This document shows, one piece after another, positions 2,126-44,400 of a DNA stretch of 64,000 nucleotides (positions are counted from its first letter, which is position 1; each line of letters starts with the position of its first letter). The position numbers were made by a program, and so were the translations under genes. Under the pieces are notes generated by a model. It had not been told where the DNA came from and searched no databases. It saw nothing but the letters and a program-made list of their open reading frames with translations. Source of the stretch: an uncultured virus (IMG/VR IMGVR_UViG_3300036944_000487) (lineage: Duplodnaviria; Heunggongvirae; Uroviricota; Caudoviricetes); the IMG/VR virus record IMGVR_UViG_3300036944_000487, one strand, 5' to 3'.

Positions 2126-3276
2126 AAATGAGATTGGCTAGGCCCACAGCAATGTGGAGCCATGTACAGGGTGAATTGTCTGGGAGGCTAACGGCGAAAG
2201 CCCATGCTAATCAGCAGCCAAGCCTAGGAAGCGATTCCTAGGAAGGTTCAGAGACTAGGGAATACAAACTCACTGAGTTTATGAATCCCGTAGGACAGGT
2301 AAGTACCGTCCGAAGTGCCCTGCCCCTAGAAATAGGGTGAAGATATAGTCCGACACTCCGATGAAAATCGGAGAACTTTTACTAGTCGTGAGACAATTAA
2401 TGCGTCAATAGTGTGCGTTCACTAGATAGGAATTCAGATGCGTGAGTACTTGGTTTACTGGTATCACTTGGCAGAGCACACCGACCCCCTTTCACAGGGG
2501 TACGTAGGCGTAACTTGTCAAAATGATGTGCGCAAACGCTGCCACATCAACGGTAGTACCGGTGGAAGCAAAGTGCTTCACCAAGCGTTCAAGAAGTACG
2601 GTGTGGGAGCCATCATTCAAGACATTCTCTGCACTACAACAGATGCAGAGACTGCCTACACGCTCGAGCAACATTACCGCCCACTGCCTAGGATCGGATG
2701 GAATCTTGCTGCTGGTGGAGGGCTACCTCCTGACACCACAGGCAGGGTTGATTCGCCAGAGGTTCGTAAAAAGCGCGGACTAAGTGTTCAAAAAGCCAGG
2801 CTAACCAAAGTGTTCCCCAATAAATTCAAGGGGACAACCGGTCGCTACAGCCAGGCAGAGCGAGACAACATTGGTAGCTACCACCGTGGAAAAACAATCT
2901 CAGAGGCGCACAGAAAGGCTATCACGGAGAAGATCTCTGGAGGTGACAGCCCGAAGGCCAAGGAGATCTACTTGGTCCATGTTGATTTCCCTGAGGTTGT
3001 TTATTGTTACCCCTGTATCAAGGTCGCAGCAGACACCCACGGAATCCCGTACAACACGCTACGAAGCCAAGCCCAACGCACGCTGAAAAACAACACACCA
3101 TCTGAGTCATCGAGAACGGGTTGGATGTGCCTTACCAAAGACACTGCCAGTGAACCAGTAAAAGCGGTTCAGATGATGAAAGATGCACGCATAGCTCGAT
3201 GGACTCGCATCGTTGCTGAGAGAAAGCACAAACGACTAGTAGAAGGTGCTGGAGTAACGCCCAGCATTAACAGATG
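2126..3276 (+). mobile_element. Group I self-splicing intron (IA-like) with homing endonuclease ORF
   Basis: P (AATTGTCTGGGA), Q (AATCAGCAG), R (GTTCAGAGACTA), S (AAGATATAGTCC) elements; exon ends in U with P1 UAGCU/GGCUA; intron ends in G; removal restores SNVA-NMTHSMDA in frame. Confidence 0.92.
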
Positions 3277-3277
3277 A
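2438..3277 (+). CDS. Intron-encoded GIY-YIG homing endonuclease with NUMOD3-like repeats
   Basis: VYW...GYVGVT, R...H, GWNLAAGG, HRGKTISEAHRKAI; atypical codon usage. Confidence 0.85.
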   Translation: MREYLVYWYHLAEHTDPLSQGYVGVTCQNDVRKRCHINGSTGGSKVLHQAFKKYGVGAIIQDILCTTTDAETAYTLEQHYRPLPRIGWNLAAGGGLPPDTTGRVDSPEVRKKRGLSVQKARLTKVFPNKFKGTTGRYSQAERDNIGSYHRGKTISEAHRKAITEKISGGDSPKAKEIYLVHVDFPEVVYCYPCIKVAADTHGIPYNTLRSQAQRTLKNNTPSESSRTGWMCLTKDTASEPVKAVQMMKDARIARWTRIVAERKHKRLVEGAGVTPSINR

Positions 3278-3798
3278 ACATGACGCACAGCATGGATGCG
3301 TGGGTACTGAGGAGCATGCATCGCAGGCTGAACTACGACCATGGCGTTGCCCTGCACATCGCCAACTGCATCGAGGATGAGCTCATCGAGCGCAGCCTGG
3401 GTACGAAACCTGAAGAGCTGTCCCTCAGCCCCAAAGTGGCGTACTACATCGAGCAGTACAGGCGTAGCTCTCTGGCTGACATCGTCATCCTGCCGCACCT
3501 AGACAGGGACGAGATCACCCACCTGAGCACCGAGCATCTCCAGGCTCTGGCTCAGATTCTCACCGGCATGCTGCAGCACCTTCCCTTCGAGCTCATCACT
3601 GTCCATGATGAGTTCAAGGCACATCCCAACAACCTGAACCAGGTGCGTTGGATGTACCGAGAGATCATGGCTGAGATCGCAGAAAGCAACGTACTCGACG
3701 ACCTTCTCAGCCAGATCATGGGTGCACCTGGTACCTTCAACAAGGTGAACTTCAACCTGCCTGAGCTGATTCGTCAGTCGAACTACGCACTGTGTTGA
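3277..3798 (+). CDS. N4-like RNA polymerase II subunit 2, exon 2
   Basis: N.THS.DA and motif C TVHDEF; spliced product 412 aa. Confidence 0.9.
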   Translation, partial: NMTHSMDAWVLRSMHRRLNYDHGVALHIANCIEDELIERSLGTKPEELSLSPKVAYYIEQYRRSSLADIVILPHLDRDEITHLSTEHLQALAQILTGMLQHLPFELITVHDEFKAHPNNLNQVRWMYREIMAEIAESNVLDDLLSQIMGAPGTFNKVNFNLPELIRQSNYALC

Positions 3799-3822: not shown

Positions 3823-4317
3823 TGGGTGAATGGGGAAGAGGATGAGCCAACTGGCTGATCTCCTACTCCATTCTTCTTTCCATCAACCCACAGAGCAATT
3901 CAATGAAGAAGCTGCTGAATGCCATTCGGGATGCTTACTACAGTGTCCTCGTCATAGCCTTCAGTCGCTTCCATTGGATCGACTGATCGCTCAGTCGCTC
4001 TGTCAGACAATCATCAGGAGAGAACCATGCGTTAACTGACGCTGCCGTAGCGCAGCAAAGCTCAATAGATCTCTATGGATAACCCCGGTTCTTGAGCTTC
4101 ACCTAACACTGGGCCGCACGACACACCGTTGCATAGTGCCCGTAGCCAAACAGTACGTCTCATCGACGTGCATGTGAGTACCCCTAACCAGCTTGAGTGC
4201 TGGACATCGAGTAGCTCCTCCTTTCATAGCCCGCATTGGCTCTAAACAACGGATGTAGAAGCAGCGAACGCATCTAAATAAGCCCGCCACGCCCTCGACT
4301 GAGGAACAGCACTGAAC

Positions 4318-4382: not shown

Positions 4383-4664
4383 ATGAAGTCATCCCGTTTC
4401 TCAAGCCTGGCCAGTCTCCTAGCTGCAGCAACCATGGGCCTTGGCGCATCTCTGAGCCCCGCAGGCTTGGGCATGGGTGCACCAACCATGTCTGTGAGCT
4501 CCTCGCGCAACCGTCAATCGCTGCTTCAGAGCATCCGCACCGGTCGCAACACGGCTCCTGTCAACAGCTACCCCAGTGGCCCTGGCTGGACCCAAGCGCA
4601 GGTTCAACGCATGGCCCGCAAGAAGCGGAATGTGAAGGCCAACCGTCGCAACCAACGAGGCTGA
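4383..4664 (+). CDS. hypothetical basic protein
   Basis: 93-aa ORF, Arg/Lys-rich C-terminus. Confidence 0.6.
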   Translation: MKSSRFSSLASLLAAATMGLGASLSPAGLGMGAPTMSVSSSRNRQSLLQSIRTGRNTAPVNSYPSGPGWTQAQVQRMARKKRNVKANRRNQRG

Positions 4665-4667
4665 AAC

Positions 4668-4859
4668 ATGCGCCACCACACCGACCTTTCCGCAGGAGCC
4701 ATCTTCATCCTGTCCGTCTGGTTCCTGGCCATCCTCGGATGGGTCATGAACATCTTTGACATCGTGGAGATGGTCAACGATCCGATCACCGGGATGTTCA
4801 TCCTCCGCTGTATCGGCGTCTTTGTTGCTCCCCTGGGCAGCATCCTGGGGTACTTCTAG
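4668..4859 (+). CDS. small membrane protein
   Basis: Two hydrophobic segments; GW.MN...RCIGVFVAPLG.ILG pattern common in phages. Confidence 0.7.
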   Translation: MRHHTDLSAGAIFILSVWFLAILGWVMNIFDIVEMVNDPITGMFILRCIGVFVAPLGSILGYF

Positions 4860-4980
4860 TCCCCCAACAGAAGTCCTGAGAAGTTCTCCAGAACTTCTCT
4901 CCCAACCCATACCGATAACCTAATTTTTGGAATCGGTGATTTTTGACTATGTCAACCCGAGGGTATGACTAGGAGAACCC

Positions 4981-5226
4981 ATGCCCCACTTTTCTGAAGA
5001 ACAGCTCAAAGAACTCGAGTCCCTCTACGAACTGAAGTCCAAGGAAACCCGCGAGGTTTTCGATGGGGTGGTGACCAGAGGCGCAATGGTGTGGTGGAAG
5101 GGAGAAGACGGTCCTGAGCACGTCAGCACTTCCGGCCATAGCCACTGGAACAACCTCAGGAATTTCCCGAAGCTGTACAGCATCAGCAAGCCCGCCACCA
5201 AGCTCGTCTACGTGGACCTGGAATGA
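4981..5226 (+). CDS. hypothetical protein
   Basis: AGGAG RBS; ATGA-coupled to next ORF. Confidence 0.65.
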   Translation: MPHFSEEQLKELESLYELKSKETREVFDGVVTRGAMVWWKGEDGPEHVSTSGHSHWNNLRNFPKLYSISKPATKLVYVDLE

Positions 5227-5513
5227 AGCAGCCCATCAAAGCCGGTGACCTCGCAGAGGTCATTGGCGGTCTCCAGGGGCGAGACAGTCCCAACCTGGGG
5301 CTCATCGTCAAGGTGCTCACATCCCAAGGTGAGCACAGCCAATACGGACCCATCTGGATCTGTCAGGCCGAGCACGCAGTCATTGGCCAACCAGGTACCC
5401 GTGACATGGCTCCTGGCTGTGCTCACTTCGCTCAGGACTGGCTCCGAAAGATCGAGCCACCGTCTCAGCCCACCAACACCGAAACCAACGTCTCCAAGGA
5501 GATCACAGCATGA
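5223..5513 (+). CDS. hypothetical protein (KOW/SH3-like start IKAGDLAEVIGG)
   Basis: Coupled ORF chain. Confidence 0.65.
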   Translation: MKQPIKAGDLAEVIGGLQGRDSPNLGLIVKVLTSQGEHSQYGPIWICQAEHAVIGQPGTRDMAPGCAHFAQDWLRKIEPPSQPTNTETNVSKEITA

Positions 5514-5770
5514 CAGTCATTTCCCTCAGCCAAGTCCAGAAGAGCCAGATCTCTCTGGACTACGGCCTGAACCTCTTCACCATCAACGAGCTGGCCTATC
5601 ACAACAGTTGCTCCCGTCGCACGATCATCCGTGTGCTGGAAGAAGCTGGCCACCAGAACGTGGTCAAGAAGCGCCAGCCCAAGCCCAAGCCGGTTCCTGT
5701 CGTGATCCCCACCAGAACTCCCTGGTGGAAGCGCATCACTGGCTGGATGACCGGAGAGGTGCGTACGTGA
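5510..5770 (+). CDS. putative HTH DNA-binding protein
   Basis: TINELAYHNSCSRRTIIRVL resembles helix-turn-helix. Confidence 0.6.
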   Translation: MTVISLSQVQKSQISLDYGLNLFTINELAYHNSCSRRTIIRVLEEAGHQNVVKKRQPKPKPVPVVIPTRTPWWKRITGWMTGEVRT

Positions 5771-5985
5771 GTCCTCTTCACATCGCCACCTCACCCCTGA
5801 CCAATCGGATCTTCGTTGGGCGAACCAATAAGGCGGGTACTGCGTTTCTTGCTGGCAAGCAAGACGTAACTGGGCTTGCTTGCGCCGCAGTTGCTCAGTA
5901 CGCACTGGCTGGTGAAGCCACACCCCTCATCGTGACTGCCAACGGCAAACCCAAGTACGAGATCACCGTCAAGGAGATCCCGTGA
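5767..5985 (+). CDS. conserved phage protein (SPLTNRIF.G family)
   Basis: GTGA overlap start; SPLTNRIFVG...KQDVT motif. Confidence 0.65.
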   Translation: MSPLHIATSPLTNRIFVGRTNKAGTAFLAGKQDVTGLACAAVAQYALAGEATPLIVTANGKPKYEITVKEIP

Positions 5986-6164
5986 GCAACTCACAGCCGC
6001 CCATCCGGGCGGTACCTCTGATGCTGTTCCCCGCAATGAGCAGCTTGAACGAAGTGGTGACCTACGCCACCTCCAAAGTCCCAGTCATCAGTCACAACGA
6101 GATGTTCTCTTTGCTGATGACGTACCACAACACGTTGCTCAAGGTCATAGAAGACCAGAAGTGA
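5982..6164 (+). CDS. conserved N4-like hypothetical protein
   Basis: LMTYHNTLL motif; precedes gp24-like ATPase. Confidence 0.65.
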   Translation: MSNSQPPIRAVPLMLFPAMSSLNEVVTYATSKVPVISHNEMFSLLMTYHNTLLKVIEDQK

Positions 6165-7207
6165 GCAGCACAACTCAGCAGAACACTATGCAAGTCAAGG
6201 TCAGTCAAGCAACGCGGATGATTGCCACCGCCATCAAAGCCAAGATCACTCCCATGATTCATGGAAGCCCTGGCATCGGCAAGTCCCAGATCGTCTACCA
6301 GATCGCAGAGACCTACAACCTGAAGGTCATCGACCTCCGTCTCAGCCAGTGTGACCCCACGGACCTGGCAGGATTCCCGCAAATTGACCTGGCTCGTCAG
6401 AAGGCTGGCTACGTCCCCATGGACACCTTCCCTCTCGAAGGTGAGTCCCCTCCTCCTGGCTACAGCGGCTGGATCCTCTTCCTGGACGAAGCCAACTCAG
6501 CTCCCAAGGCTGTGCAAGCAGCAGCCTACAAGATCATTCTGGATCGAGCAGTGGGTCAAAAGGCTCTGCACCAGCACTGTGCCATCGTCGCTGCAGGCAA
6601 TCTGGAGACGGATGGTGCCATCGTCGAAGAGATGAGCACGGCACTTCAGAGTCGGATGATTCACTTCGAGCTGATCTCCTGCCCGATCGAGTGGCGTGAC
6701 TGGGCCAGCGAGCATCTCAAGAACCACCAGATCCCTGACTTCATCAAGTTCAAGCCAGGAAGCCTGATGACCTTCGCTCCGGACCACACCGATCGCACGT
6801 ACGCATGCCCTCGGACCTGGGAGTTCGGAGACCGGCTCATCACTGCTGAAGGCCTGGACTCTCCCGACATCCTGCCCTTGCTGGCTGGCACCATCTCCGA
6901 AGGTGTGGCCCGTGAGTTCCTGGCCTTCTGCAAGATCTACAAGACCTTGCTGACAGTCGAACAGATCGAAGCCAATCCGGATACCGTCAAGGTGCCCACC
7001 GAACTCAGCGTGACCTGGGCTCTCACTGGCTCCATCAGCCAGAACATGACGGCCTCCAACGCCAGCGCTCTCATGAAGTTTGTGAGTCGTCTGGATGTGG
7101 AGTTCCAGGTGATCACGCTCCGTGAGGTTGTCCGCAAGCACAAGCCTCTGCGTACCCACCCTGCTGTGACGAACTGGATCGCCAAGAGCGCAGTCTCTCT
7201 GTTCTGA
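6161..7207 (+). CDS. MoxR-type AAA+ ATPase (N4 gp24-like)
   Basis: Walker A GSPGIGKS, DLRLSQ.DP.DL.G, Walker B LFLDE, PRTWE. Confidence 0.88.
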   Translation: MSSTTQQNTMQVKVSQATRMIATAIKAKITPMIHGSPGIGKSQIVYQIAETYNLKVIDLRLSQCDPTDLAGFPQIDLARQKAGYVPMDTFPLEGESPPPGYSGWILFLDEANSAPKAVQAAAYKIILDRAVGQKALHQHCAIVAAGNLETDGAIVEEMSTALQSRMIHFELISCPIEWRDWASEHLKNHQIPDFIKFKPGSLMTFAPDHTDRTYACPRTWEFGDRLITAEGLDSPDILPLLAGTISEGVAREFLAFCKIYKTLLTVEQIEANPDTVKVPTELSVTWALTGSISQNMTASNASALMKFVSRLDVEFQVITLREVVRKHKPLRTHPAVTNWIAKSAVSLF

Positions 7208-7220
7208 TACCAACCACCCT

Positions 7221-7252
7221 AAGCCCTGTCCTCAGCAATGAGGCAGGGCTTT
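7221..7252 (+). terminator. Stem-loop / probable terminator after ATPase
   Basis: AAGCCCTG..CCTCA/TGAGGCAGGGCTTT. Confidence 0.55.
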
Positions 7253-7269
7253 CCCAATTCTGGAAGCTC

Positions 7270-7689
7270 ATGAGCATCGACATTCAACTCGCCCAGAGCC
7301 TGGCTGCGAAGTACCACGCCGGTCAGAAGTACGGCACTGTGGACTACACCTGTCACCTCGAAGAGGTCGCAAACAGCGTGACCCTGGGCCACACAGATGA
7401 ACGTCTGATCGTGGTGGCCTGGCTCCACGACATCCTCGAAGACACCACCTGCGTGGTACCCACTCTTCAAGAACTCTTTGAAGACAACGTAGTCGTTGCT
7501 GTGGAAGCCATGACTCGAGGTCGGAACGAAGACAAACAGCAGTACCTGCTTCGCTGCAAAGCCAATCCCATGGCTCGCATCGTCAAGGTCCACGACTCGC
7601 TCTGCAACCTCCGAGCCAGCGTGATGCGCTTCGATCCCAAGCGGATCCAGAAGTACACCCAACAAATCAACTTCCTGGTGAGTCCATGA
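7270..7689 (+). CDS. HD-domain hydrolase, RelA/SpoT hydrolase (Mesh1/SAH)-like
   Basis: H.GQ.Y...Y..H...V, LHDILEDT, A..VK..D...N. Confidence 0.8.
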   Translation: MSIDIQLAQSLAAKYHAGQKYGTVDYTCHLEEVANSVTLGHTDERLIVVAWLHDILEDTTCVVPTLQELFEDNVVVAVEAMTRGRNEDKQQYLLRCKANPMARIVKVHDSLCNLRASVMRFDPKRIQKYTQQINFLVSP

Positions 7690-8027
7690 GCATCATCCAA
7701 GCCTCGTTCTTCTACAAGAACGACCAACCCGGTGGCATCGGGATCACCTTCGGTCCTCCCACCTTCTCTGGCTCCGACCTCGAGCGCATGTTCAACGGCG
7801 ATGTGTCCAAGAAGTTCGCTCATGAGAGTGACCTCGCTCTGGGCAGCAACATCGTGGGTCACATGATCAACCAGCTGGATTCCATCGGGATCCAGAAGAT
7901 GGAAAGTCGACCCATCACAGGTCGTATGGCCATCCTGGCAGCACTCAACATTCAATGGCTCACTAGCCGTGGCTTCATCCCCAACGATGAGTTCAATGGT
8001 GTGCAGTTTGTCGGAGTCAAGGTGTGA
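7686..8027 (+). CDS. hypothetical protein
   Basis: Coupled ORF, 113 aa. Confidence 0.6.
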   Translation: MSIIQASFFYKNDQPGGIGITFGPPTFSGSDLERMFNGDVSKKFAHESDLALGSNIVGHMINQLDSIGIQKMESRPITGRMAILAALNIQWLTSRGFIPNDEFNGVQFVGVKV

Positions 8028-8293
8028 ACACCTTCTTCCTTCTCATGGCTCAGTACAACGCAGCCATGATCCCCATCGACAAGGTGGTTCAGGACTACTT
8101 CCCTCACCTCAGCACTGACAAGTTCATCCGCAAGGTAGGTCTTGGGGAAATCAACATCCCCATGATCCGCATCGAAGCGGGTACGCAGAAGAGTGCCAAG
8201 GGGATCCACATCAACGACCTGGCTACGTACCTCGATGAGAGGCGTGCAGCTGCGGTCAAGGAAGCCAAGCAGTTGGCAGGGAATACAGCATGA
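8024..8293 (+). CDS. Pyocin activator PrtN-family protein (possible excisionase/RDF)
   Basis: MNT.FLLMAQY...IP...V..DYF.HL, QKSAKGIH..DLA.YLD. Confidence 0.85.
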   Translation: MNTFFLLMAQYNAAMIPIDKVVQDYFPHLSTDKFIRKVGLGEINIPMIRIEAGTQKSAKGIHINDLATYLDERRAAAVKEAKQLAGNTA

Positions 8294-8622
8294 GCACCGA
8301 CCGAGGACTGCTGCGGCAGGCGCTGGAGGCGCTGGAGTTGGCCTACGCTGGTGCCGATGCGATCACGGTTCACGGCAAAGCCATCACCGCCATCCGCGCA
8401 GCCCTGGAGCAGCCGGAGCCGGAGCCGGTGGCAATCCATCAGTGGCGAAAGCGGTTTTGCGCCGAATGGTATGACGGCTACGCAGATCATGAAGACGGCG
8501 GAGGCCCATACGAGGAGCGCATCTTGTACACCCACCCACCACAAAAGGAGCAGCATGGGAACCTATCGCAAGGAATGGAACTGCTGCGGCAGCGTCACAG
8601 AAACCGAGGCTTGGGAGCCTGA
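8290..8622 (+). CDS. hypothetical prophage-type protein
   Basis: LRQALEALE...AITAIRAALEQPEPEPVA...LYTHPP pattern; codon style differs from core genes. Confidence 0.6.
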   Translation: MSTDRGLLRQALEALELAYAGADAITVHGKAITAIRAALEQPEPEPVAIHQWRKRFCAEWYDGYADHEDGGGPYEERILYTHPPQKEQHGNLSQGMELLRQRHRNRGLGA

Positions 8623-8782
8623 GGTCTGCCCGTTCTGCGACATAACAGAGGTTACTGCTGCGATTGCGGCAGAGCGCGAGCGGTGCGCAAAGCTGGCCGA
8701 AGAGTACGCAACTTGGGGCGGCAGCAACTTCCACGAGTGGTTCAACAAGTTGGCCGCAGCCATCCGTGCTGACGGGAAGTAG
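8555..8782 (+). CDS. hypothetical protein with CC/CxxC and AERERCAKLAE motif
   Basis: AAGGAG RBS before ATG 8555. Confidence 0.55.
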   Translation: MGTYRKEWNCCGSVTETEAWEPEVCPFCDITEVTAAIAAERERCAKLAEEYATWGGSNFHEWFNKLAAAIRADGK

Positions 8783-9030
8783 GGGTAACAAAAGAGCAAC
8801 ATGAACCATGCAGGCAACACCTAACGTGTTGTTCTGTATGGCGTTTCTACCCCTTGTCCGTCCAGTCCATCATGGGCGCAATGCTCAGTTTCCACTCACT
8901 GGGAGAGTCTCTCTTCCCAGGAGAAACCAGGGTTTCCACTCCCGTCTCATTCCCGATCATTCCAGCCTTTTCCGTACCGTTTTGGAGCCTGGGGGTAACA
9001 TCCGGTGCAACAAAACCACCGTGTTACACC
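8782..9030. mobile_element. Putative attP for dusA integration
   Basis: dusA-like core (about 8856-8894) flanked by GG(G/T)G(T/C)AACA-type repeats, directly upstream of integrase. Confidence 0.8.
8847..8960 (-). pseudogene. dusA: Replacement 5' fragment of tRNA-dihydrouridine synthase A
   Basis: Minus-strand 37-codon ORF MIGNETGVETLVSPGKRDSPSEWKLSIAPMMDWTDKG*, containing the DusA N-terminal signature S.APM.DWTD. Confidence 0.85.
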
Positions 9031-9033
9031 ACC

Positions 9034-10098
9034 ATGGGCTCCATCCTTTCCCGTCAACGCAAGGACGGGACCGTAGGCTACACCGCCATCATCCGGATCA
9101 AGAAGGAAGGCAAGGTCATCCACACGGAGACCCAGACCTTCGATCGGGAGCAAGCCGCCAAGGCCTGGTTGAAGAAGCGAGAGACCGAGCTCTCCAAGCC
9201 AGGAGCTCTGACCAAGATCGAGGATCCTCTCCTGACCGAGGTCATCGACCAGTACAACCTGGAGAAGATCAAGCTTCACGGCAAGACCAAGACCCAGGTG
9301 CTAAAGACCATCCAGTCCAGCTCACTGGCTCAGAAACGATGCTCCCAGATCGGTAGCCCTGACCTGGTTGAGTTCGCAAAGAAGATCGCAGCGAGCCCTC
9401 AGACCCGTGGGAACTACATGTCTCACCTGGCTTCGGTCTTCTCAGTAGCCAGGCCCGCATGGGGGTACCCGCTGGACAGTCAAGCCATCGATGACGCTCG
9501 CATCGTGCTGCGCAAGCTAGGGCTCGTTACACGCTCTAAGGAGCGCCATAGGCGTCCTACTTTGGAGGAGCTGGATCTCCTCATGAATCATTACGAAACC
9601 ATGCAGCTCAAGCGAGGGGACTCCGTCCCGATGACCCGGATCATCCCCTTCGCCATCTTCTCCACTCGACGCCAGGAAGAGATCACCCGCATCACAGGCA
9701 AAGACCTGAATCGGGAGCACCTGGAGATCATCGTCCGTGACATGAAGAACCCTGGCGAAAAGGTTGGCAACGATGTTCGCACCACCCTCACCCCTGAGGC
9801 ACTGAAACTCATCGACCTTCAGCCCAAGACCGAAGGAATCATCTGGCCTCACAACGCCGGATCGATCAGTACCTCGTTCACTCGAGCGTGCACCCTGCTC
9901 GGGATCGAAGACCTCCATTTCCATGACCTTCGACATGACGGCATCAGCCGCTTGTTCGAGATGGGATGGACCATCCCTCAGGTGGCTTCTGTATCAGGAC
10001 ATCGCTCCTGGCAGTCACTCAAGCGATACACCCACATTAAGCAGACCGGTGACAAGTACGCCGGATGGAAGTGGCTAACTCCCATGACATGTGAGTAA
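9034..10098 (+). CDS. int: Tyrosine integrase, dusA-associated integrase type
   Basis: FSTRRQEEI, RDMKNP, HDLRH, SGH..W..LKRYT catalytic motifs; MGSI..R.RKDG...YTA.IR N-terminus; start placed at ATG 9034. Confidence 0.92.
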   Translation: MGSILSRQRKDGTVGYTAIIRIKKEGKVIHTETQTFDREQAAKAWLKKRETELSKPGALTKIEDPLLTEVIDQYNLEKIKLHGKTKTQVLKTIQSSSLAQKRCSQIGSPDLVEFAKKIAASPQTRGNYMSHLASVFSVARPAWGYPLDSQAIDDARIVLRKLGLVTRSKERHRRPTLEELDLLMNHYETMQLKRGDSVPMTRIIPFAIFSTRRQEEITRITGKDLNREHLEIIVRDMKNPGEKVGNDVRTTLTPEALKLIDLQPKTEGIIWPHNAGSISTSFTRACTLLGIEDLHFHDLRHDGISRLFEMGWTIPQVASVSGHRSWQSLKRYTHIKQTGDKYAGWKWLTPMTCE

Positions 10099-10125
10099 GT
10101 AATGCGCGTCCCCGCGCTTCGTGAC

Positions 10126-10151
10126 AAAGAGACCTGAGGGTCTCTTTTTTT
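10126..10151 (+). terminator. Intrinsic terminator after integrase
   Basis: AAAGAGACC-TGAG-GGTCTCTTT plus T-tract. Confidence 0.75.
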
Positions 10152-10168
10152 ATGCCCGAAAGGAAACC

Positions 10169-11329
10169 ATGAAGACCATACAGGACGCCTCTGAAGTCCA
10201 AGCCCAGAAGCAAGCTCTGGACAAAGCCAAGATCTGTCTGATGCAGAAGGACGACAGCGCCTTCTTCACCACGCTGTGCTTCTCCCTGAAGCAACGCTTC
10301 GATGACGGCCATCCCACGGCCTACACCGATGGTCGAACCATCACCTGGAATCCCAAGTTCTTCATGAAGGATCTTGTGGACATCGAGGAGCGTGTGTTCC
10401 TGATGCTCCACGAGACACTGCATTGCGCCTACCTCCACACGGTGCGAGTGCAGCCTGGCATGTGTCGTGACCGAGCCAATATCGCCATGGATCACGTCAT
10501 CAACCTCCAGCTCGTCGAGCGGGGTTTCAAGATGCCGACCAAGGTACCAGGCCACGCAGATCCCCAGTTCAAAGGGATGTGCTGGGAAGAGGTCTACAAG
10601 CTCCTCCCTGACAACCCTGGCAAGCCCCAGATGCAAGACCTGGGAGATCCTGCAGAAGGACTCTCCGGTGACGAGAAGAACGCAGCAGCCACCCTGCTGG
10701 AAGAAGAGATGCAGGAGATCCTGGTTCGTGCAGCAGTCCAGTCCAAGCTGTCGAACGACAAGCCGGGAACCATCCCCCAGGACATCCAGATCTTCCTGAA
10801 CGGTCTGCTGAATCCCCAGCTCCCCTGGAACCGGATCCTGCAGAAGTACCTGCACAGCTACGCCAAGAACGACTACTCGTTCCGCAAGCCCAACCGCAGG
10901 TTCTTTCCCAAGTACCACCTGCCTTCCATGTTCTCGGAGTCCCTCATGGACCTGAGCATTGCGGTGGACATCTCCGGCTCCGTCAGCACCAAGGACTTCC
11001 ACGTCTTCGTGTCCGAAGTGGCTTCCATTCTCCGGATGATGAAGCCCAAGAAGATCACGCTGATCCAGTTTGATACCGAGCTCAAGTCGGTGGATACGGT
11101 AGGGACCATCAAGGATCTGATGGCCATCAAGTTCAAAGGACGAGGTGGCACTGACATCACGCCTGTTCTCGAATGGGCCAACGTCAACAAGCCTCAGCTC
11201 CTAATGGTCTTCACGGACGGTCACTTCAAGTTCCCGACGCTGGATACCAAGCGCAACACGCTCTGGCTCATCCACAACAACCAGAAGTTCGTACCTCCCT
11301 TCGGGAAGGCCATCCACTACAAGATCTAG
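10169..11329 (+). CDS. Metallopeptidase-vWA protein (N4 gp25-like)
   Basis: TAYTDG, HETLH, NIAMD..IN, vWA DISGS, GRGGTD, FTDG; AAGGA RBS before ATG 10169. Confidence 0.88.
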   Translation: MKTIQDASEVQAQKQALDKAKICLMQKDDSAFFTTLCFSLKQRFDDGHPTAYTDGRTITWNPKFFMKDLVDIEERVFLMLHETLHCAYLHTVRVQPGMCRDRANIAMDHVINLQLVERGFKMPTKVPGHADPQFKGMCWEEVYKLLPDNPGKPQMQDLGDPAEGLSGDEKNAAATLLEEEMQEILVRAAVQSKLSNDKPGTIPQDIQIFLNGLLNPQLPWNRILQKYLHSYAKNDYSFRKPNRRFFPKYHLPSMFSESLMDLSIAVDISGSVSTKDFHVFVSEVASILRMMKPKKITLIQFDTELKSVDTVGTIKDLMAIKFKGRGGTDITPVLEWANVNKPQLLMVFTDGHFKFPTLDTKRNTLWLIHNNQKFVPPFGKAIHYKI

Positions 11330-11337
11330 GAGTCGAG

Positions 11338-11511
11338 ATGAAGTTCGAAGTCAAGCTCACATTGACGATTGAAGCCGAGTCCCAGTCCGCAGCCTATGAC
11401 ATAGGCGTGGAAGCTGCAGAGCACTTGAACGACACGTTCAACGACAACGGCAGTCTCGCCCCATTCATGTTGATTCAAGTCTCAGAAGGAAATTCCCATG
11501 GACATCACTGA
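11338..11511 (+). CDS. hypothetical protein
   Basis: AGGAG RBS, 57 aa. Confidence 0.5.
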   Translation: MKFEVKLTLTIEAESQSAAYDIGVEAAEHLNDTFNDNGSLAPFMLIQVSEGNSHGHH

Positions 11512-11824
11512 AGCCACCAAGAAAGTCCGAACCGAGAAGCTCAAGGACAACCTCATGATCCTGGAGTTCAGTTACGACCACAAGATCATCCTGCCCCACA
11601 AGGACGGATCCACCATCCTGACTGCACTGCTCAATGCAGAGCGTCTGAAGGAATCCTACGGAACCACAACCCGGATCACCGAGATCGAGCGGGACAGGAT
11701 CAAGGTCCAAACCATGTCGTACTCCGAGTACGAACGCATCAAAATCGCTGCTCTCCTCGGCCTCTCACCTGACGAGGTGCTGGAAATGATGGAAGCGACT
11801 AACAAACCAGCCACCACATCATGA
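11498..11824 (+). CDS. hypothetical protein
   Basis: Coupled to helicase start. Confidence 0.65.
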   Translation: MDITEATKKVRTEKLKDNLMILEFSYDHKIILPHKDGSTILTALLNAERLKESYGTTTRITEIERDRIKVQTMSYSEYERIKIAALLGLSPDEVLEMMEATNKPATTS

Positions 11825-13083
11825 CCACCGACACCCTCGACAGCATCGTCCTGACTGCAGACCAGAACACTGCACTGGACGCCCTCTTCCTCTTCCTCAT
11901 CGACCCCGTGGAAACGGTGTTCGTTCTGTCTGGGTACTCCGGCTGTGGCAAGTCCACCCTGGTTCGTACCCTGCTGGATCAGATGCCCAACTACATCCGG
12001 ACAGCCAAGCTCATCAACCCGAGCCAGAAAGAGTTCAGCACCCAGCTCACAGCCACCACCAACAAGGCTGCAGAAAACCTGTACCAGATCACCGGACACG
12101 AGGTGTGCACCATTCACTCGTTCCTGGGTCTGCGGGTGGAGACCGACTACCGGACCAACGTCAGCAAACTGGTGGCTCGACAGAACTTCACCTGCCCAGA
12201 AGACACTGTGGTCTTCATCGACGAGGCCTCCTACGTCGATCGCCAGCTCCTGGACATGATCTTCAAGCGTACCCACAACTGCAAGATCGTCTTCATCGGT
12301 GACCCGGCTCAACTGACTCCCGTCAAAGCCACCAGTGCACCTGTGTTCGAAGCAGGCTTTACCGGAGCTGCTCTGACCACTGTGGTGCGTCAGGCTGAAG
12401 GCAATCCCATCGTGGACTTGTCCACCAAGTTCCGTCACACGGTGAACACCGGGGAGTTCTTCGGGTTCACTCCCGATGGACACCACATCCGGCGACTGGA
12501 TCGGGCAGCTTTCAACCAGGCCATCGAAGACGAGTTCACTCGTCCCGATTGGAAGTACGCAGACTCCAAGATCCTGGCCTGGACAAACAAGTGCGTCATT
12601 GGCTACAACCAGTACGTCCGCAACTTGGCTAAGGGAGATCCGCACTTCCAGGCTGGCGACTATGCGGTCTGCAACTCGTTCCTGACGCTAGGTCGCAGCA
12701 GCATCAAGACTGACCAGCTGGTTCAGATCACCCGGATCGAAAAAGACAGTGATCACTACGATGTGCCAGGCAACTGGATGACGATCGATCACGGCATGCG
12801 AGTATTCCAACCCCGAAGCCTGCAAGAGAAGAACAACCGTCTCAAGCTGGCTCGTGCACAAGATGACTTCCACACCGTTTCTGTGATCGAGTCTTCCTGG
12901 ATCGATCTCCGTGGAGCCTATGCCTGCACCATCAACAAGGCACAAGGTTCCACCTTCGGATCGGTCTTCATCGATCTCGATGACGTAGGTGGCTGCAACA
13001 GCGGTGACCAGATTGCCCGCATGCTCTATGTGGGTGTTTCCCGAGCCAAAAACCATGTCTATCTGACGGGTGACTTGGCTTAA
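11821..13083 (+). CDS. Dda/RecD-like SF1 DNA helicase
   Basis: GYSGCGKS, DEAS, GDPAQL, TINKAQGST, YVGVSRA. Confidence 0.92.
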   Translation: MTTDTLDSIVLTADQNTALDALFLFLIDPVETVFVLSGYSGCGKSTLVRTLLDQMPNYIRTAKLINPSQKEFSTQLTATTNKAAENLYQITGHEVCTIHSFLGLRVETDYRTNVSKLVARQNFTCPEDTVVFIDEASYVDRQLLDMIFKRTHNCKIVFIGDPAQLTPVKATSAPVFEAGFTGAALTTVVRQAEGNPIVDLSTKFRHTVNTGEFFGFTPDGHHIRRLDRAAFNQAIEDEFTRPDWKYADSKILAWTNKCVIGYNQYVRNLAKGDPHFQAGDYAVCNSFLTLGRSSIKTDQLVQITRIEKDSDHYDVPGNWMTIDHGMRVFQPRSLQEKNNRLKLARAQDDFHTVSVIESSWIDLRGAYACTINKAQGSTFGSVFIDLDDVGGCNSGDQIARMLYVGVSRAKNHVYLTGDLA

Positions 13084-28899: not shown

Positions 28900-30144
28900 A
28901 TGACGACACCCTCTCTCCCAACCCCTCTGCAGGACTACGTCCACAAGAGCCGGTATGCCAAGTGGCGTCCCGATCTCCAGCGTCGTGAGCACTGGCCGGA
29001 AACCGTCCGACGCTACGTCGAGTACTTCGCCAGCAAGTTCCCTCACTACCCCACCGAGCGGATCTACCAGGCCATCCTCAGCCTGGGTGCCATGCCTTCC
29101 ATGCGTGCGCTGATGACCGCAGGCCCTGCACTTGAGCGGGATCCCATGGCAGGCTTCAACTGCAGCTTCGTGGCTGTGGATCACCCTCGGGCCTTCGATG
29201 AGATCCTGTACATCCTGATGTGCTTCCACCCGGACACCTTGGTGGTGACCCGTGCTGGCAACAAGAGGATCGCGGACATCGCCATCGGTGATGAGGTTGC
29301 CTCGATTGACGAAGCCACTGGCAAGTCCATCTGGAAGGCCGTGACTAACCAGATCAAGACCAAGTCGGCCCACAAGCCAAAAGTCCAGATCACGTTGGAC
29401 AACGGTCACACCGTCAAATGCACAGCCGACCACAAGTGGCTCACCATCAACCGTGGCTGGGTCATGGCAGGTGACCTGACGGCGGATGACGACCTGACGG
29501 CTCCCAGCCACCAGATCTATCGCATCACCAACAAGGTCAACGGCAAGGCGTACATCGGTCAGACCTCGAAGACAGCGGAAGCTCGCTTCAAGGAACATCT
29601 GTATGTCGCCAACACCCAACCCTCCGACTGGCACTTCGCTAAGGCACTGCGCAAGCATGGTGCCGACGTGTGGCAAGTAGAGGTGATTGACTTCGCCTTC
29701 TCAGCTCAGGAAGCAACTGAAAAGGAGTGCTACTGGATTGCTCAAGACAACACCGTGGCGGCTGGCTACAACTCCACTATCGGTGGAGAAGGTGCTCCCG
29801 GCTACCAGTGGACTGCGGAGCAGCGGCAACGCGCTTCTGAAAACGCTTACGAGCGTTCTGATGAACACCGCGATGCACAGCGCACTGTGCTGGCCAAAGC
29901 CCAAGAAAAGATCGTTCAAACCCGGCAGACGCTTGAGTACCAAGCAGCCCAACGTGAACGCAATCTCGGTGAGAAAAACCCCATGTTTGGTCGAAAGCAT
30001 TCGGACGAACGTAAGGCACAGATTCGTGAGCAGACGACCGGTAGCTCCAACCCGTTCTTCGGTCGCAAGCACACCGAAGAAACCAAGCAAAAGATTCGGG
30101 ACACCAAGGCCCGCAATCAAATGAACCAAGGAGCCTTCGCATGA
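28900..30144 (+). CDS. nrdJ: Class II ribonucleotide reductase N-fragment + split intein N-half + GIY-YIG endonuclease
   Basis: SRYA.W, MPSMRALMTAG, FNCSF (107-aa extein); CFHPDT block A at 29221, CTADHKW block B; IYRITN..NGKAYIGQT and NUMOD3 (NPMFGRKHS, NPFFGRKHT). Confidence 0.9.
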   Translation: MTTPSLPTPLQDYVHKSRYAKWRPDLQRREHWPETVRRYVEYFASKFPHYPTERIYQAILSLGAMPSMRALMTAGPALERDPMAGFNCSFVAVDHPRAFDEILYILMCFHPDTLVVTRAGNKRIADIAIGDEVASIDEATGKSIWKAVTNQIKTKSAHKPKVQITLDNGHTVKCTADHKWLTINRGWVMAGDLTADDDLTAPSHQIYRITNKVNGKAYIGQTSKTAEARFKEHLYVANTQPSDWHFAKALRKHGADVWQVEVIDFAFSAQEATEKECYWIAQDNTVAAGYNSTIGGEGAPGYQWTAEQRQRASENAYERSDEHRDAQRTVLAKAQEKIVQTRQTLEYQAAQRERNLGEKNPMFGRKHSDERKAQIREQTTGSSNPFFGRKHTEETKQKIRDTKARNQMNQGAFA

Positions 30145-31868
30145 GGGTCACTAGCGTTACCCCCATCATCGACGAGCAGGACTACTTCGACATCACTGTC
30201 GAAGACACCCACAATTTCCTCCTCGCAGACGGCAGCATCGTCCACAACTGCGGGACCGGTGTCGGCTTCAGTGTCGAGCGTCAGTACATCGCCAAGCTCC
30301 CTGTCATTGGAGCCAAGGTGACGGTGAGTGAAACCGGTCAGCTGGGCATCGAGACTGTCGAAGCCCTGGAGCCGATCGATCACACCATCATGGTTCGTGA
30401 CAGCAAGGGTGGCTGGGCTGGAGCTTTCAAGGAGCTCCTCTCCCACCTGTACGCAGGCAAGGTTCCCAAGTGGGATGTCAGCCGTGTGCGTCCTGCCGGA
30501 GCCAAGCTGAAGGTATTCGGTGGACGGGCCTCCGGCCCTCAACCCCTGGTGGACTTGTTCAAGTTCGCAGTCGAAACCTTCCGAGGTGCCGTGGGCCGCA
30601 AGCTCACCTCGATCGAATGCCATGACCTCGTCTGCAAGATCGCTGACATCGTGGTGGTAGGCGGCGTCCGCCGCTCTGCCCTGATCAGCCTGTCCAACCT
30701 CAGTGACGACAGGATGCGTGGAGCCAAGAACGGTCAGTGGTGGATCAACAACCCCCACCGTGCACTGGCCAACAACTCAGCGGCCTACACCGAACGCCCC
30801 GACATGGAGCTGTTCATGAAGGAGTGGTTGAGCCTGGTCGAATCCAAGTCAGGTGAGCGAGGCATCTTCAACCGTGAAGCAGCGGTCAAGAAGGCCCTGG
30901 CATCGGGCCGCAGGGATCACACCAAGATCGCTGGCACCAACCCCTGTGCCGAGATCACGCTGCGTTCTGCAGGGCTGTGCAACCTCTCCGAAGTGGTCGT
31001 CCGCAATGACGACACCTTTGAGACTCTGCTGGAGAAGGTCGAGATCGCCACGATCATCGGTACCTACCAGTCGATGCTGACCAACTTCCGGTACATCCGT
31101 CCGATCTGGAAGGAGAACCAGGAAGACGAGCGTCTGCTGGGTGTGTCCCTCACTGGGATCATGGACCACCCGGTCCTGAGCCAGACCAACAGTCAAGCTG
31201 CAATGTGGCTTGTGTCCATGAAGCAGCACGCCATCACCATCAACCGGGAATGGGCTGCCATGCTGGGCATCAAGCCAGCGACTGCCATCACCACCGTCAA
31301 ACCTTCTGGCACCGTGAGCCAACTGGTGGACAGTGCTTCGGGTATCCATCCCCGGTACTCGGAGCACTACATCCGCACTGTCCGAGCCGACAAGAAGGAT
31401 CCTCTGGCGCAGCTCATGCGTCAGCAAGGATTCCCGGTCGAAGACTGTGCGATGAAGCCGGCCACCACGGACATCTTCAGCTTCCCGGTGCAAGGCCCGA
31501 CTGATGCGGTCTTCCGCAACGATCGATCGGCCATCGAGCAGCTCGAGCACTACCTCATGGTGCAGAGCAACTGGTGTGAGCACAACGTGTCCATCACGGT
31601 CTACGTGAAGGATCACGAGTGGCTCGGAGTCGGTGACTGGGTCTATCGCAACTGGGATCAAGTCGGAGGCGTCAGCTTCCTTCCCCACAGCGACCACTCC
31701 TACCAGCAAGCACCCTACCAAGAGTGCACGCAGGCGGAGTACCAGGCACTGCAAAACCGCATGCCTACGTTCGACTGGGATCAGCTTGCTGATTTCGAAA
31801 AGGACGATGCCACGGTGAACACCAAGGAACTTGCCTGTACCGCTGGCGGTTCCTGCGAGATTCTGTGA
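30141..31868 (+). CDS. nrdJ: Split intein C-half (36 aa) + class II ribonucleotide reductase C-fragment
   Basis: YFDITVEDTHNF...IVHN|CGTGVGFSVE; VVGGVRRSA, TNPCAEI, CNLSE, VKPSGT, C-terminal C...SCE; own AAGGAG RBS. Confidence 0.92.
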   Translation: MRVTSVTPIIDEQDYFDITVEDTHNFLLADGSIVHNCGTGVGFSVERQYIAKLPVIGAKVTVSETGQLGIETVEALEPIDHTIMVRDSKGGWAGAFKELLSHLYAGKVPKWDVSRVRPAGAKLKVFGGRASGPQPLVDLFKFAVETFRGAVGRKLTSIECHDLVCKIADIVVVGGVRRSALISLSNLSDDRMRGAKNGQWWINNPHRALANNSAAYTERPDMELFMKEWLSLVESKSGERGIFNREAAVKKALASGRRDHTKIAGTNPCAEITLRSAGLCNLSEVVVRNDDTFETLLEKVEIATIIGTYQSMLTNFRYIRPIWKENQEDERLLGVSLTGIMDHPVLSQTNSQAAMWLVSMKQHAITINREWAAMLGIKPATAITTVKPSGTVSQLVDSASGIHPRYSEHYIRTVRADKKDPLAQLMRQQGFPVEDCAMKPATTDIFSFPVQGPTDAVFRNDRSAIEQLEHYLMVQSNWCEHNVSITVYVKDHEWLGVGDWVYRNWDQVGGVSFLPHSDHSYQQAPYQECTQAEYQALQNRMPTFDWDQLADFEKDDATVNTKELACTAGGSCEIL

Positions 31869-41404: not shown

Positions 41405-44400
41405 TCACTGAGGAGCCCAGTCACTCCCTCCAGCTCCCACCAACGACAGTGCACTGTTCACTGTCGCCAGCTCATCCAGTGCTCCAGGGTACTGCAAGGC
41501 TCCCCAGTGGATCGGGTTGTTCCCGATCTTGGCGACCCATGAGCTATCCAGAACGATGGGGCCGAAGTCCAGGAACTGACCCAGCAACACTGCACTGAAC
41601 ACTCGAGCAGGGTGATCCTTGGTCAGCCGCATCAGAACCTTCTGCACCCGCAGGAAGTACTTCATGAACGGGAAGATCCCCATGTCATCGAGGTACTGCA
41701 TGCTGCGGTGCATCGGAACGTCGTAGTTGATGAAGTCTTCACTGGACTGCTGGATCGCGTCTTCCTTGCTCAACGGATCCACCTGACGGGTCGTCAGGTG
41801 TTGATACTGCGTGTACCGAGCCATGAAGTCAGAGAGCTGGGTCACCCGACGCAGTGCCTGGTACGGAGCCGTGTCCTTGGTCATGTAGACGTTCTTCAGT
41901 GTCGTCTTCACACCAGGATGCAGCTTGCTCGTCAGGGTGTCGACCTTCTCAGTCAAGGCGCTCTTGTACGAGTACGGGTCCACATCTTCCGCAGCATCTT
42001 CCACGATGGTCGGCATCAGGCCTGCTTCGATCAGCTCCCGCACTGGGTTGCGAGCCAGAGCATCCTCCAGTCGAGCGATCTGGATCTTGATCTGTGCATC
42101 CTTGCCGTTCGTCTGACCGATGTCGATGAGCGTTTTCAGACGATCCAACTCATCACTGTCACGCTGGTAGGACGTAGCACCACGCCAAGCCACCAGGTGA
42201 CTGTTGACGATGTCCTTGATCGGAACACCCGACAGGATCAGCAGCGACATGTTGCTCTTCAGGTTACCCATCATCACGGTCACCGTCTTGATCACCAACA
42301 GATCTTTGGTCTCTCCGACGATTTCCTGCCAGGCTCTTTCCCCACGGGAGATCACCACCGCAGCCCGCTCACCGTACTTCTCCGGATCTGGGTGACCTTT
42401 GGTTCGGGCATGCAGCACCAGGGCATGTTCCACCGCCACGGTGAAGAACTTGGCCATGGCATTCTCGAAGTCATCCACAAGGCCTTGAGAGCCGATCGGA
42501 GCCATACCCCTGGCAATCCGGTCGGCATCATCCTTGCGTCGATCCTGCGTCGATCTGATGGCGTTGGCGAGGCTCAGCTTGCGGTACCCGAAGATGATGT
42601 CCCGTTGATCGTTCCGAACGAACATCCCATCCCGACCCCAGATGGCACGAGCTGCTGCCTTGGAATCATCCGGCAGCTTGGCCCACATCTCACGGAGCTC
42701 GGGATCCGGGCTCTTCGGACCCACCAGAACATAGGCAGCAGACTTGCGAGCCTTCTCCGCGTCGTACTGATCCTTCATGGCTTGGAACACTCGGGTGTTG
42801 GTATCCGTCACCGTGTCCTTGCCGAAGATCGAACCAGCCAAGGTACCGAGTACCAGGTCGAACTGGTTCTCACGTTGAAGAATGGTGTCCTTGGTGCTGT
42901 CGTGCATCAGGTACCGCCAGTTCACGATCTCCCCCTGGGGGTTCACGATCGGAGCCATATACGTGTGCTTCTCCTGGGAAGGATCCCAGTTCGAAGCGTT
43001 GTTCATGGCGTTCTGCTTGCCGTGCATGATGTCGGCCTGCAGCGAAGCGTTGGCCAGACCATCGGCAGTGTTGATGTTCATGTACCCGCTGTGCTGACGA
43101 GCTCCCTTGGAGCGCTTCCCGTCATAGGCCAGGTTGCCAGTCAGGTGAGGCATCAAGCCACCACCATCCAGCACGTAGAGGTGCTTGCGGGTCTGATCCG
43201 GATGAGCGGGATCGATCTCGACAGCAGCACCCTTCTTGTAGCCTTTGTTGATGAGCTCCTGACCCGTGACATCGTCAGCCGTCTGGATCTCGATGTGAGG
43301 GCTGTAGATCTCCTGGGTGTAGCCGTGAGTCATCAGGGCTTCCTGGCCTTGGAACAACCGGTCCCTGGATTCCTTGTCCATGCGACGGTGCATCTCAAGC
43401 ACGAACTCCACACCGTTCCCTTCACTGGCCGGTCGAGCGTTCTCGGTCTGCAGCACTCGCTTGGCGATGTTCAGCTCCGCAGGGGGAACGTAGCTCAGTG
43501 CGTAGAGAGCCACCAGCTTCTCAACCACTGGCTCCCGTTGCTGAGCCTGGGCTTCCGTCACCCGGTTGCGGTACGGAGTTCCGTACAGACGGGCGATGTT
43601 GTGAGCGTTCATCATCAAGACCTTGGCCTTGTTCCGACCGGTCACCTTGAAGTACCCCAGCGCCTTGGCCTGGTTGATCACCGAGTTCCTCATGTTGCCC
43701 AAGCCAGTGAGCTGAGCTTCTAGGGAAGCGATCTCGGCATTCCGTGCTGCCTTGTCACCCACCAGGTTCTCCAGCTGGGTCATGTTGTACGGACCCTTCA
43801 GCACAAAGGCTCCCGTCCGCATGAACACCTGAGTGATGCTGTTCTTGGCAGCTTTCGACATGTCCTTGCCACCGTTGACGAAGGCTTGACGGGTCATCTT
43901 GGAGATGCGGGTGATCAGGTCTTTGCGCTCACCTTCCAGAACCTTGCGTTCACGCAGCAGAGCTTCCTGGACCTTGTCACCACCCATAGCGTAGTTCAGG
44001 GTACCGGCCACGAAGCCCAGACGATCCTTCCACTGCTGTGCACGGAACTGCTTGACCTCCTCCATGAAGGCGTCGACCTGGTTGTTGGCCACGATGCGAA
44101 CCACACTACCGACTGCCTTCACAACGCTGCTGGAATTGTTGCGAACCAACTGGGAGCCAGCGATGTCACTGACCTTGCGGATACCCGCTTCCACCAGCTT
44201 CTTGGCTCCGGCTTCGATCGGTGCTGTCAGGTTGAAGGCTCCTGCACGACGAGCCAGTGAAGATCTCTTCTTGGCTTCGATGTCGATCAGTTGATCCACC
44301 AGACGCAACAGCTTGGCATCAGCCTTCTGACCAGCGTAGGTGCTCGTCACCTTCTCATGGAAGAACTCGAGCACACCTTCCCAGAAGATGCCCAGCTTCT

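Follow-up and report, generated by a model that had tools for sequence, protein, structure and literature searches.

The window analysed here, a stretch of 64,000 nucleotides from an uncultured virus, carries an attachment site between the N4-like ATPase gene on its left (6161-7207) and a DUF2201/VWA gene on its right (10121-11329), the latter being followed by the helicase and polymerase genes. The identity of the parts and their layout are read directly from the window and are as follows.

7208..10120 (2.9 kb): stretch between the N4-like ATPase and DUF2201/VWA genes, holding the integration genes together with an HD phosphohydrolase gene and an unknown ORF
8024..8293, plus: PrtN-family excisionase (recombination directionality factor), 89 aa; PF11112 PyocinActivator, 8.4e-27; phrog_1300 'excisionase', 1e-29
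8555..8782, plus: small Cys-rich ORF between xis and attP, 75 aa; ATG behind AAAGGAG; in frame with ORF 8351-8782
8782..8790, plus: candidate arm-type site flanking the core towards xis, GGGGTAACA
8847..8960, minus: replacement 5' end of dusA, 37 codons; in-frame fusion to host dusA predicted upon integration
8856..8879, minus: attP core, the predicted crossover region, GCGCCCATGATGGACTGGACGGAC in dusA sense, codons A-P-M-M-D-W-T-D
8992..9030: candidate arm-type sites on the int side, GGGGTAACA at 8992 (plus), GGTGCAACA at 9004 (plus) and GGTGTAACA at 9022 (minus)
9034..10098, plus: dusA-associated tyrosine integrase (DAI family), 354 aa; PF00589, 1.1e-13

The predicted cassette would accordingly be ordered as xis (8024-8293), one arm site, the core (8856-8879), the surrogate dusA 5' end (8847-8960, minus strand), three arm sites and int (9034-10098).

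The surrogate dusA start, the core and the excisionase

The ORF at 8847..8960 on the minus strand translates, from the sequence and the ORF list, into the 37 aa MIGNETGVETLVSPGKRDSPSEWKLSIAPMMDWTDKG followed by a stop codon. Its ATG lies at 8958-8960 and that of the integrase at 9034, the two genes being divergent with 73 bp between them; this is exactly the minus-strand frame with a DusA start that the first-pass annotation had described. A degenerate pattern of the AP[MLIV]xDWTD type has a single match in the six-frame translation of the 64-kb window, located at this ORF. The N-terminus of the NCBIfam DusA equivalog NF008774 (337 profile positions) is also matched by the peptide, whose residues 17-36 fall on positions 7-26 (E 1.5e-4). 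On these matches, the likeness of the small ORF to DusA is judged to be beyond chance. The similarity does not have to end after WTD, however: 5 of the 28 DusA loci readable among the 30 sampled from the family of G002 read WTDKHCR. At one DusA locus (L254) the match to the phage DNA runs through the AAG codon of Lys36, with 27 of 30 scored positions, and the likeness to DusA may extend one residue past WTD.

The proposal that the ORF is an element-type replacement of the dusA 5' end is corroborated by the DusA N-termini found beside the integrases of integrated relatives. The peptide aligns ungapped from Met1 with the DusA N-terminus of Macromonas nakdongensis (L012; 20/36 identical, E 4e-11), whose first 36 residues are MSGNETGPKGADFIGGVGSHSPWRLSVAPMLDWTDK, and with the DusA start of locus L009 (MTGNET...; 18/39 identical, E 6e-10). 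It had also been claimed that integration gives DusA both an N-terminus and a promoter of phage origin. The N-terminus is substantiated by these two alignments; the promoter is not, as a simple scan of 8200-9300 for sigma-70-like promoters returned no site, and transcription of the fused dusA from a phage promoter is presumed. Two exact 10-nt direct copies of GTTTCCACTC (8888-8897 and 8932-8941, plus strand), 44 nt apart, lie within the surrogate ORF, and conservation of this repeat is not visible in an alignment with eight relatives.

In the same alignment of eight relatives, only one block on the dusA side, the core, is shared by the window and the relatives (GTCCArTCCAkCATCGGCGC, the codons A-P-M-M-D-W-T). 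Past this block dusA continues in the bacterial loci but not in the window or in L100, a free viral contig, both of which diverge. The core corresponds to the 23-nt duplication at attL and attR of the Macromonas genome G005, and among the Dus loci sampled from the family of G002, 18-27 of 30 scored positions around it match. The candidate arm-type sites are concentrated around the core: the pattern GGKGYWACA has 7 matches in the 64-kb window, 4 of them inside 8782-9030, and GGGGTAAC occurs 4 times vs 0.58 expected. Sites of the GGTGCTACA type, two direct and one inverted, are located immediately upstream of int in the window and in all eight aligned relatives, and GTAGCAC-type sites occupy the equivalent position at attR of the Macromonas element. 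Int presumably binds these arm-like motifs.

Homologues of xis adjoin related integrases in bacterial, viral and metagenome loci. The small Cys-rich ORF that follows (8555..8782) has no family match in Pfam or PHROGs. Just past xis, within ORF 8290-8622, short variant contigs from X1, X2 and X4 (see the section on the carrier) branch at 8316-8432, with joints of the 'same length, diverged' type at 8337-8411, loose ends at 8316 and 8432 and a locally raised depth; this is either a micro-diverse segment or a segment common to other elements.

The integrase and its integrated relatives

The integrase starts at the ATG at 9034, with a Met1 that is invariant in an alignment of 28 sequences, and the TTG at 8854 given in the ORF list is not its start. 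R212/R213, H297, R300, H323 and Y332 are likewise invariant in the 28 homologues, and we read them from the alignment as the probable RHRH tetrad and nucleophilic tyrosine of tyrosine recombinases. Compared with GenBank phages by tblastn, the integrase is closest to that of Burkholderia phage AH2 (57.5%), followed by Rhizobium phage RHph_Y3_1 (53.2%), Pseudomonas phage H66 and relatives (51.7%), the Burkholderia phages DC1 and BcepMigl (50.4%), the Ralstonia GP4-like phages (about 50%) and Burkholderia phage BcepIL02 (48.7%), with 33% for mEp460-type coliphages; the identities of 49-58% to AH2, H66, DC1, BcepMigl and BcepIL02 span 98% of the integrase length. No GenBank phage was matched by megablast with 8000-11000 as the query. 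The phage-borne DAI homologues listed by Farrugia et al (2015, PMC4482086) are AH2, BcepMigl, BcepIL02, DC1, mEp460 and H66. The nearest integrases, P0002, P0012, P0023 and P0039, are 75-81% identical and are encoded on contigs of 32, 39, 32 and 62 kb, respectively.

In bacteria, one genome per species was scanned with the alignment of 28 close homologues as query, and the best 80 of 464 confirmed relatives were retained. A divergent DusA homologue starts less than 500 nt from int in 71 of these 80 loci; five of the other nine have less than 200 nt of contig upstream (contig edges) and four are in a different context. A motif search in the same best 80 of 464 located [AS]PxxDWTD-type codons 128-319 nt upstream of int in 70 loci, the distance from motif to int being 155 nt in both the window and the best relative (L007, a Hydrogenophaga MAG, 72%). 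All six of the int-adjacent neighbours tested are DusA by NCBIfam, with more than 510 bits. A quick maximum-likelihood tree of 74 rows places the window integrase in a clade of seven (SH-aLRT 98), together with L007, L020, L008, L009, L010 and L012, all dusA-adjacent, the sources of the clade being Hydrogenophaga, Roseateles, Comamonas, Pseudorhodoferax, Macromonas and one beta-proteobacterial MAG. The grouping of the integrase with dusA-associated integrases, as anticipated by the first-pass annotation, is therefore upheld by the identities to listed DAIs, by the dusA-adjacent loci and by the tree, and on these comparisons the integrase is assigned to the DAI family.

The question arises as to whether the enzyme could instead serve the DNA metabolism of the phage itself, for instance by resolving concatemers or circular forms at an attP-like site, and not chromosomal integration. 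Tyrosine recombinases are capable of such a role, and the classical view of N4-like phages is that they are lytic (Zheng et al, 2023, PMC10654107). However, an ORF mimicking DusA with a conserved start, frame and beta-1 strand would then be useless, the closest relatives of Int are those found beside dusA in 71 of the best 80 of 464 loci, and a dedicated excisionase is present, so that we regard this role as exceedingly improbable.

An integrated counterpart is the element of Macromonas nakdongensis (L012, L286 and L289), in whose genome G005 the core is present twice, as attL and attR, with a 23-nt run identical in both. At attL, a start supplied by the element is joined to ...KHCRYF... of dusA, beside int. 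At attR, the native start MSVTSPDPTISPWRLSVAPMLDWTD is followed by a stop after six foreign codons, two GTAGCAC motifs and then a PrtN-type gene. This element resembles the window in its Int (62% identical) and in its Xis, the PrtN-type gene at attR (59% identical), in a replacement DusA N-terminus of equal length with the same MxGNETG start, in arm-like sites at both ends and in the duplicated 23-nt core. It differs from the window in being integrated, and the N4-like DUF2201 gene was not found in G005. The layout of attL and attR in G005 is what integration of the window attP would be expected to produce; the same architecture is thus observed before integration and, in a relative, after it. 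The arrangement agrees with the model of Farrugia et al, in which the element supplies a replacement beta-1 strand of the TIM barrel (PMC4482086). At attR of this element (L289; G005:C140, ~1501), the native dusA promoter and the first 25 codons persist as a dead-end ORF of 31 codons, in front of which lies a terminator-like hairpin belonging to the upstream gene.

Free phages with a comparable site are also found. AH2, DC1 and RHph_Y3_1 possess a minus-strand ORF upstream of int that ends in ...APM[MI]DWTD and a few further residues, and H66 (RRFSVAPMMDRSN, then a stop codon) and GP4 carry variants of this dusA-start ORF. These five phages are like the window in their Int (50-58%) and in the position of the dusA-start ORF, about 160-200 nt upstream of int. 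Unlike the window, they belong by record to other virus groups (Casjensviridae, Lessievirus, Hollowayvirus and Gervaisevirus), and none of them has the genome plan with a virion RNA polymerase. The description of dusA as a target, of the DAI family, of the replacement 5' end and of DAIs in free phages dates from 2015 (PMC4482086). As presented there, DAI islands and prophages share with the window the integrase family, the 5' end of dusA as target, the divergent orientation of int and dusA, and a 5' end that comes from the element and brings a new beta-1 strand. Their semi-conserved att core of ~21-23 bp (21 bp within dusA) may have its counterpart in the core of the window. The carrier differs from the DAI phages listed in that work, since the window is N4-like and in the excised form. 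The DAI integration cassette of the window is of the standard kind and its carrier is unusual; the mechanism itself is not new.

We propose that the feature is, with high probability, the attP of a dusA-specific integration cassette in an N4-like (Schitoviridae) phage, and that it would function in three steps. Once the genome had circularised, the DAI integrase would carry out strand exchange with the 24-bp core as one partner and, as the other, the A-P-M-M-D-W-T-D codons close to the 5' end of host dusA, which would be identical to it or nearly so. At attL, the remaining part of the host gene would be joined in frame to 35-36 phage codons that include the replacement beta-1 strand KLSIAPMMDWTD, which would leave DusA whole. 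At attR, the native promoter and first codons would remain as a short dead-end ORF beside xis. The cassette is complete and ordinary-looking, which suggests that prophage formation is possible; that this particular phage integrates is inferred from the relatives described above.

The N4-like carrier

The window is, by its gene complement, identified as an N4-like (Schitoviridae) phage. A 3542-aa ORF (41405-52033) corresponds to the virion RNA polymerase (phrog_2206, 1693 bits, PHROGs), and N4-like RNAP II subunits, a DNA polymerase, a primase, an SSB, a major head protein and a portal are present according to PHROGs. The DNA polymerase is ~53% identical to those of phages such as Pollock, Pylas and phCDa, which we take to be N4-like. 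The attP is uninterrupted and N4-like genes are located on both sides of it, so that the sequence is the excised or free form; the earlier reading of the site as intact in the middle of the genome is confirmed on the same grounds.

The closest N4-like relatives in IMG/VR, L168 and L169 (~58% aa identity), have the same gene order, but the gap between their ATPase and DUF2201 genes is only ~500 bp, and no match to an integrase, an excisionase or an HD protein was found in them. Since the flanking genes are ~500 bp apart in these relatives, which lack the integrase, the 7208-10120 stretch is an insertion relative to them. Its HD phosphohydrolase gene matches PF13328 (8.2e-7) and phrog_990 (3.1e-40).

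It must be considered whether a dusA-type element was misjoined into an N4-like contig, as the window derives from metagenomic assembly and X2 contigs break at ~8345-8373 inside the stretch, where variant contigs branch. The same junctions are nevertheless recovered in a 71,646-nt contig of X1 that matches 5000-13000 without difference, X1 being possibly the source of the window DNA. Separate contigs of X2, also a possible source, match 5000-13000 without difference, and one of them (contig 10, 8373-11565) spans attP, int and DUF2201. The IMG/VR record G001 is 100% identical over 8000-11000, though it may not be independent of the window. A relative that is ~85-90% identical is present in X3/X4, from a different study labelled as a freshwater metagenome; its contigs extend over the N4 backbone, over the xis region and over attP with int, and the int contig continues into the DUF2201 gene. 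The occurrence of the same junctions in the X1 and X2 contigs and in the X3/X4 relative argues against an assembly chimera, which we hold to be very improbable, and indicates that the arrangement is common to at least two lineages.

Two genes of the carrier are associated with homing endonucleases. The RNAP II large subunit is split into 1409-2131 (phrog_2051 positions 1-239) and 3274-3798 (positions 240-401); the two halves, which are contiguous in L168/L169, are separated by a homing-endonuclease ORF at 2438-3277 (phrog_314). The ribonucleotide reductase also seems to be interrupted, with ORF 28900-30144 comprising an N-terminal piece (phrog_367 positions 30-136) and a homing-endonuclease domain, and ORF 30141-31868 carrying the remainder (phrog_367 positions 136-696). 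The interruption within 28900-31868 could be an intron, an intein or the insertion of a free-standing endonuclease.

Probable host and possible lysogeny

All of the nearest integrases stem from Comamonadaceae, Sphaerotilaceae or related MAGs, and the phage integrases in the tree sit by host taxon, that of H66 with Pseudomonas and that of RHph_Y3_1 with Rhizobiaceae. In the family of G002, a Trp is found four residues before V-APM in 24 of the 28 readable DusA loci (typically SPWR[LM]SVAPMMDWTD, with one locus reading WKLSV), and when loci with an integrase-like match within their 1.5-kb flanks are set aside, the same Trp is present in 21 of the remaining 25. In the set of 80 integrase loci, W[RK]LS is restricted to Burkholderiales, Pseudomonas having RRFSV and most Alphaproteobacteria RFSV or RFCV. 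From the integrase tree together with the W-[RK]-[LM]-S-V start that is typical of DusA in this family, it can be surmised that the host is most likely a member of the Comamonadaceae or Sphaerotilaceae (Burkholderiales), with which the betaproteobacterial host tentatively named in the first-pass annotation is in agreement. The core is too conserved to give more than little taxonomic resolution, and no genus can be named. The GC content is 0.564 in the window and 0.58-0.71 in the host flanks of related loci.

N4-like phages were long treated as strictly lytic, and integrase-bearing or integrated members have been reported from sequence surveys only. Zheng et al (2023, mSystems, PMC10654107) described 54 N4-like genomes or proviruses that carry hallmark genes of lysogeny, as well as 40 bacterial contigs, mostly of Moraxella, with N4-like proviruses integrated in them. 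Their integrase-bearing N4-like UViGs resemble the window in combining an N4-like genome with lysogeny hallmark genes. The word dusA has no occurrence in the main text of that article, and no paper linking an N4-like phage to dusA was found in the literature searched. Both halves of the present finding are, as far as these two accounts go, already published, the dusA mechanism in 2015 (PMC4482086) and the integrase-bearing N4-like phages in 2023 (PMC10654107).

The search of genomes for N4-like prophages at dusA, suggested in the first-pass annotation, yielded none in the sets sampled. No N4-like gene was found in the neighbourhood of a related integrase, whether in the genome loci (the best 80 of 464 relatives), in the viral loci (79 besides the window's own record, best 80 of 565) or in the metagenome loci (best 80 of 472), and the N4-like DUF2201 protein was not found in the five genomes with the closest integrases. 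Among GenBank phages with integrase matches, none of the 40 best and of a spread of 60 among the 178 records looks N4-like by name or size. Across 401 genomes from the family of G002, the vRNAP profile (3406 positions) was matched only twice and each time only in part, over positions 163-602 in one case and 203-486 in the other; both matches were rejected as N4-like prophages because the N4-type portal is absent from both genomes. The match to positions 163-602 (E 1.8e-23) comes from the N-terminal part of a 3076-aa open frame at L280 (G200:C1:2794007-2798380), possibly a giant protein of the virion or ejection type that belongs to another prophage. In the X1 and X2 contigs, no loose end or joint was found at 8847-8960 among the rows listed; contigs drop rare variants and are uninformative on integration. 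A low-depth joint in X4 (depth 3) that skips 8907-8985 is not a host junction.

The temperate hallmarks present in the window are the integrase, the excisionase and attP; a maintenance repressor and an integrated host copy were not found in the sets searched. No repressor or HTH family was found by Pfam in 28 mostly small ORFs or by PHROGs in 45 ORFs of the window, outside of which lie 7-8 kb of the genome, nor by Pfam and PHROGs in the five ORFs of the 7208-10120 stretch.

These results bear on the possibility that int, attP and xis were recently captured, through recombination, from a temperate phage or island by a strictly lytic phage, in which the dusA-like ORF would be a relic that has not yet decayed. 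Such a non-functional passenger would be consistent with the finding of no lysogen or junction, with the repressor not having been found and with the placement of the integration genes in a 2.9-kb stretch that is missing in L168/L169; the GC content of the stretch, 0.568 vs 0.564 elsewhere in the window, is uninformative in this respect. On the other hand, all parts are intact, with a full-length Int that retains its catalytic residues, Xis, and arm-like sites on both sides of the core. The start codon and frame of the surrogate ORF match those of integrated relatives, and the diverged X3 relative, from another study, retains int beside an N4-like gene. We therefore consider recent capture by a lytic phage unlikely and favour the reading as a dusA-specific integration cassette.

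The early promoters of N4 require the RNA polymerase delivered with the virion, which is missing from an integrated genome. It can be hypothesised, albeit tentatively and with more doubt than confidence, that a freshwater and subsurface N4-like lineage lysogenises Comamonadaceae-type hosts via dusA and that its prophage stays silent without a classical repressor. If this were true, dusA would be the first attB to be defined for any N4-like phage, and a tractable system would be available for the maintenance and induction of an N4-like prophage. The whole apparatus can be read base by base, comprising the core, the candidate arm sites, the surrogate gene start, Xis and Int, and the dusA integration cassette is shown to move between unrelated phage types. 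Since the chromosomal target is predictable, N4-like lysogeny is directly testable in Comamonadaceae.

At the left of the window, the early region is on the plus strand except for two minus-strand ORFs with no family match, at 4099-4290 (63 aa) and 4419-4910 (163 aa), which are candidates for a regulator.
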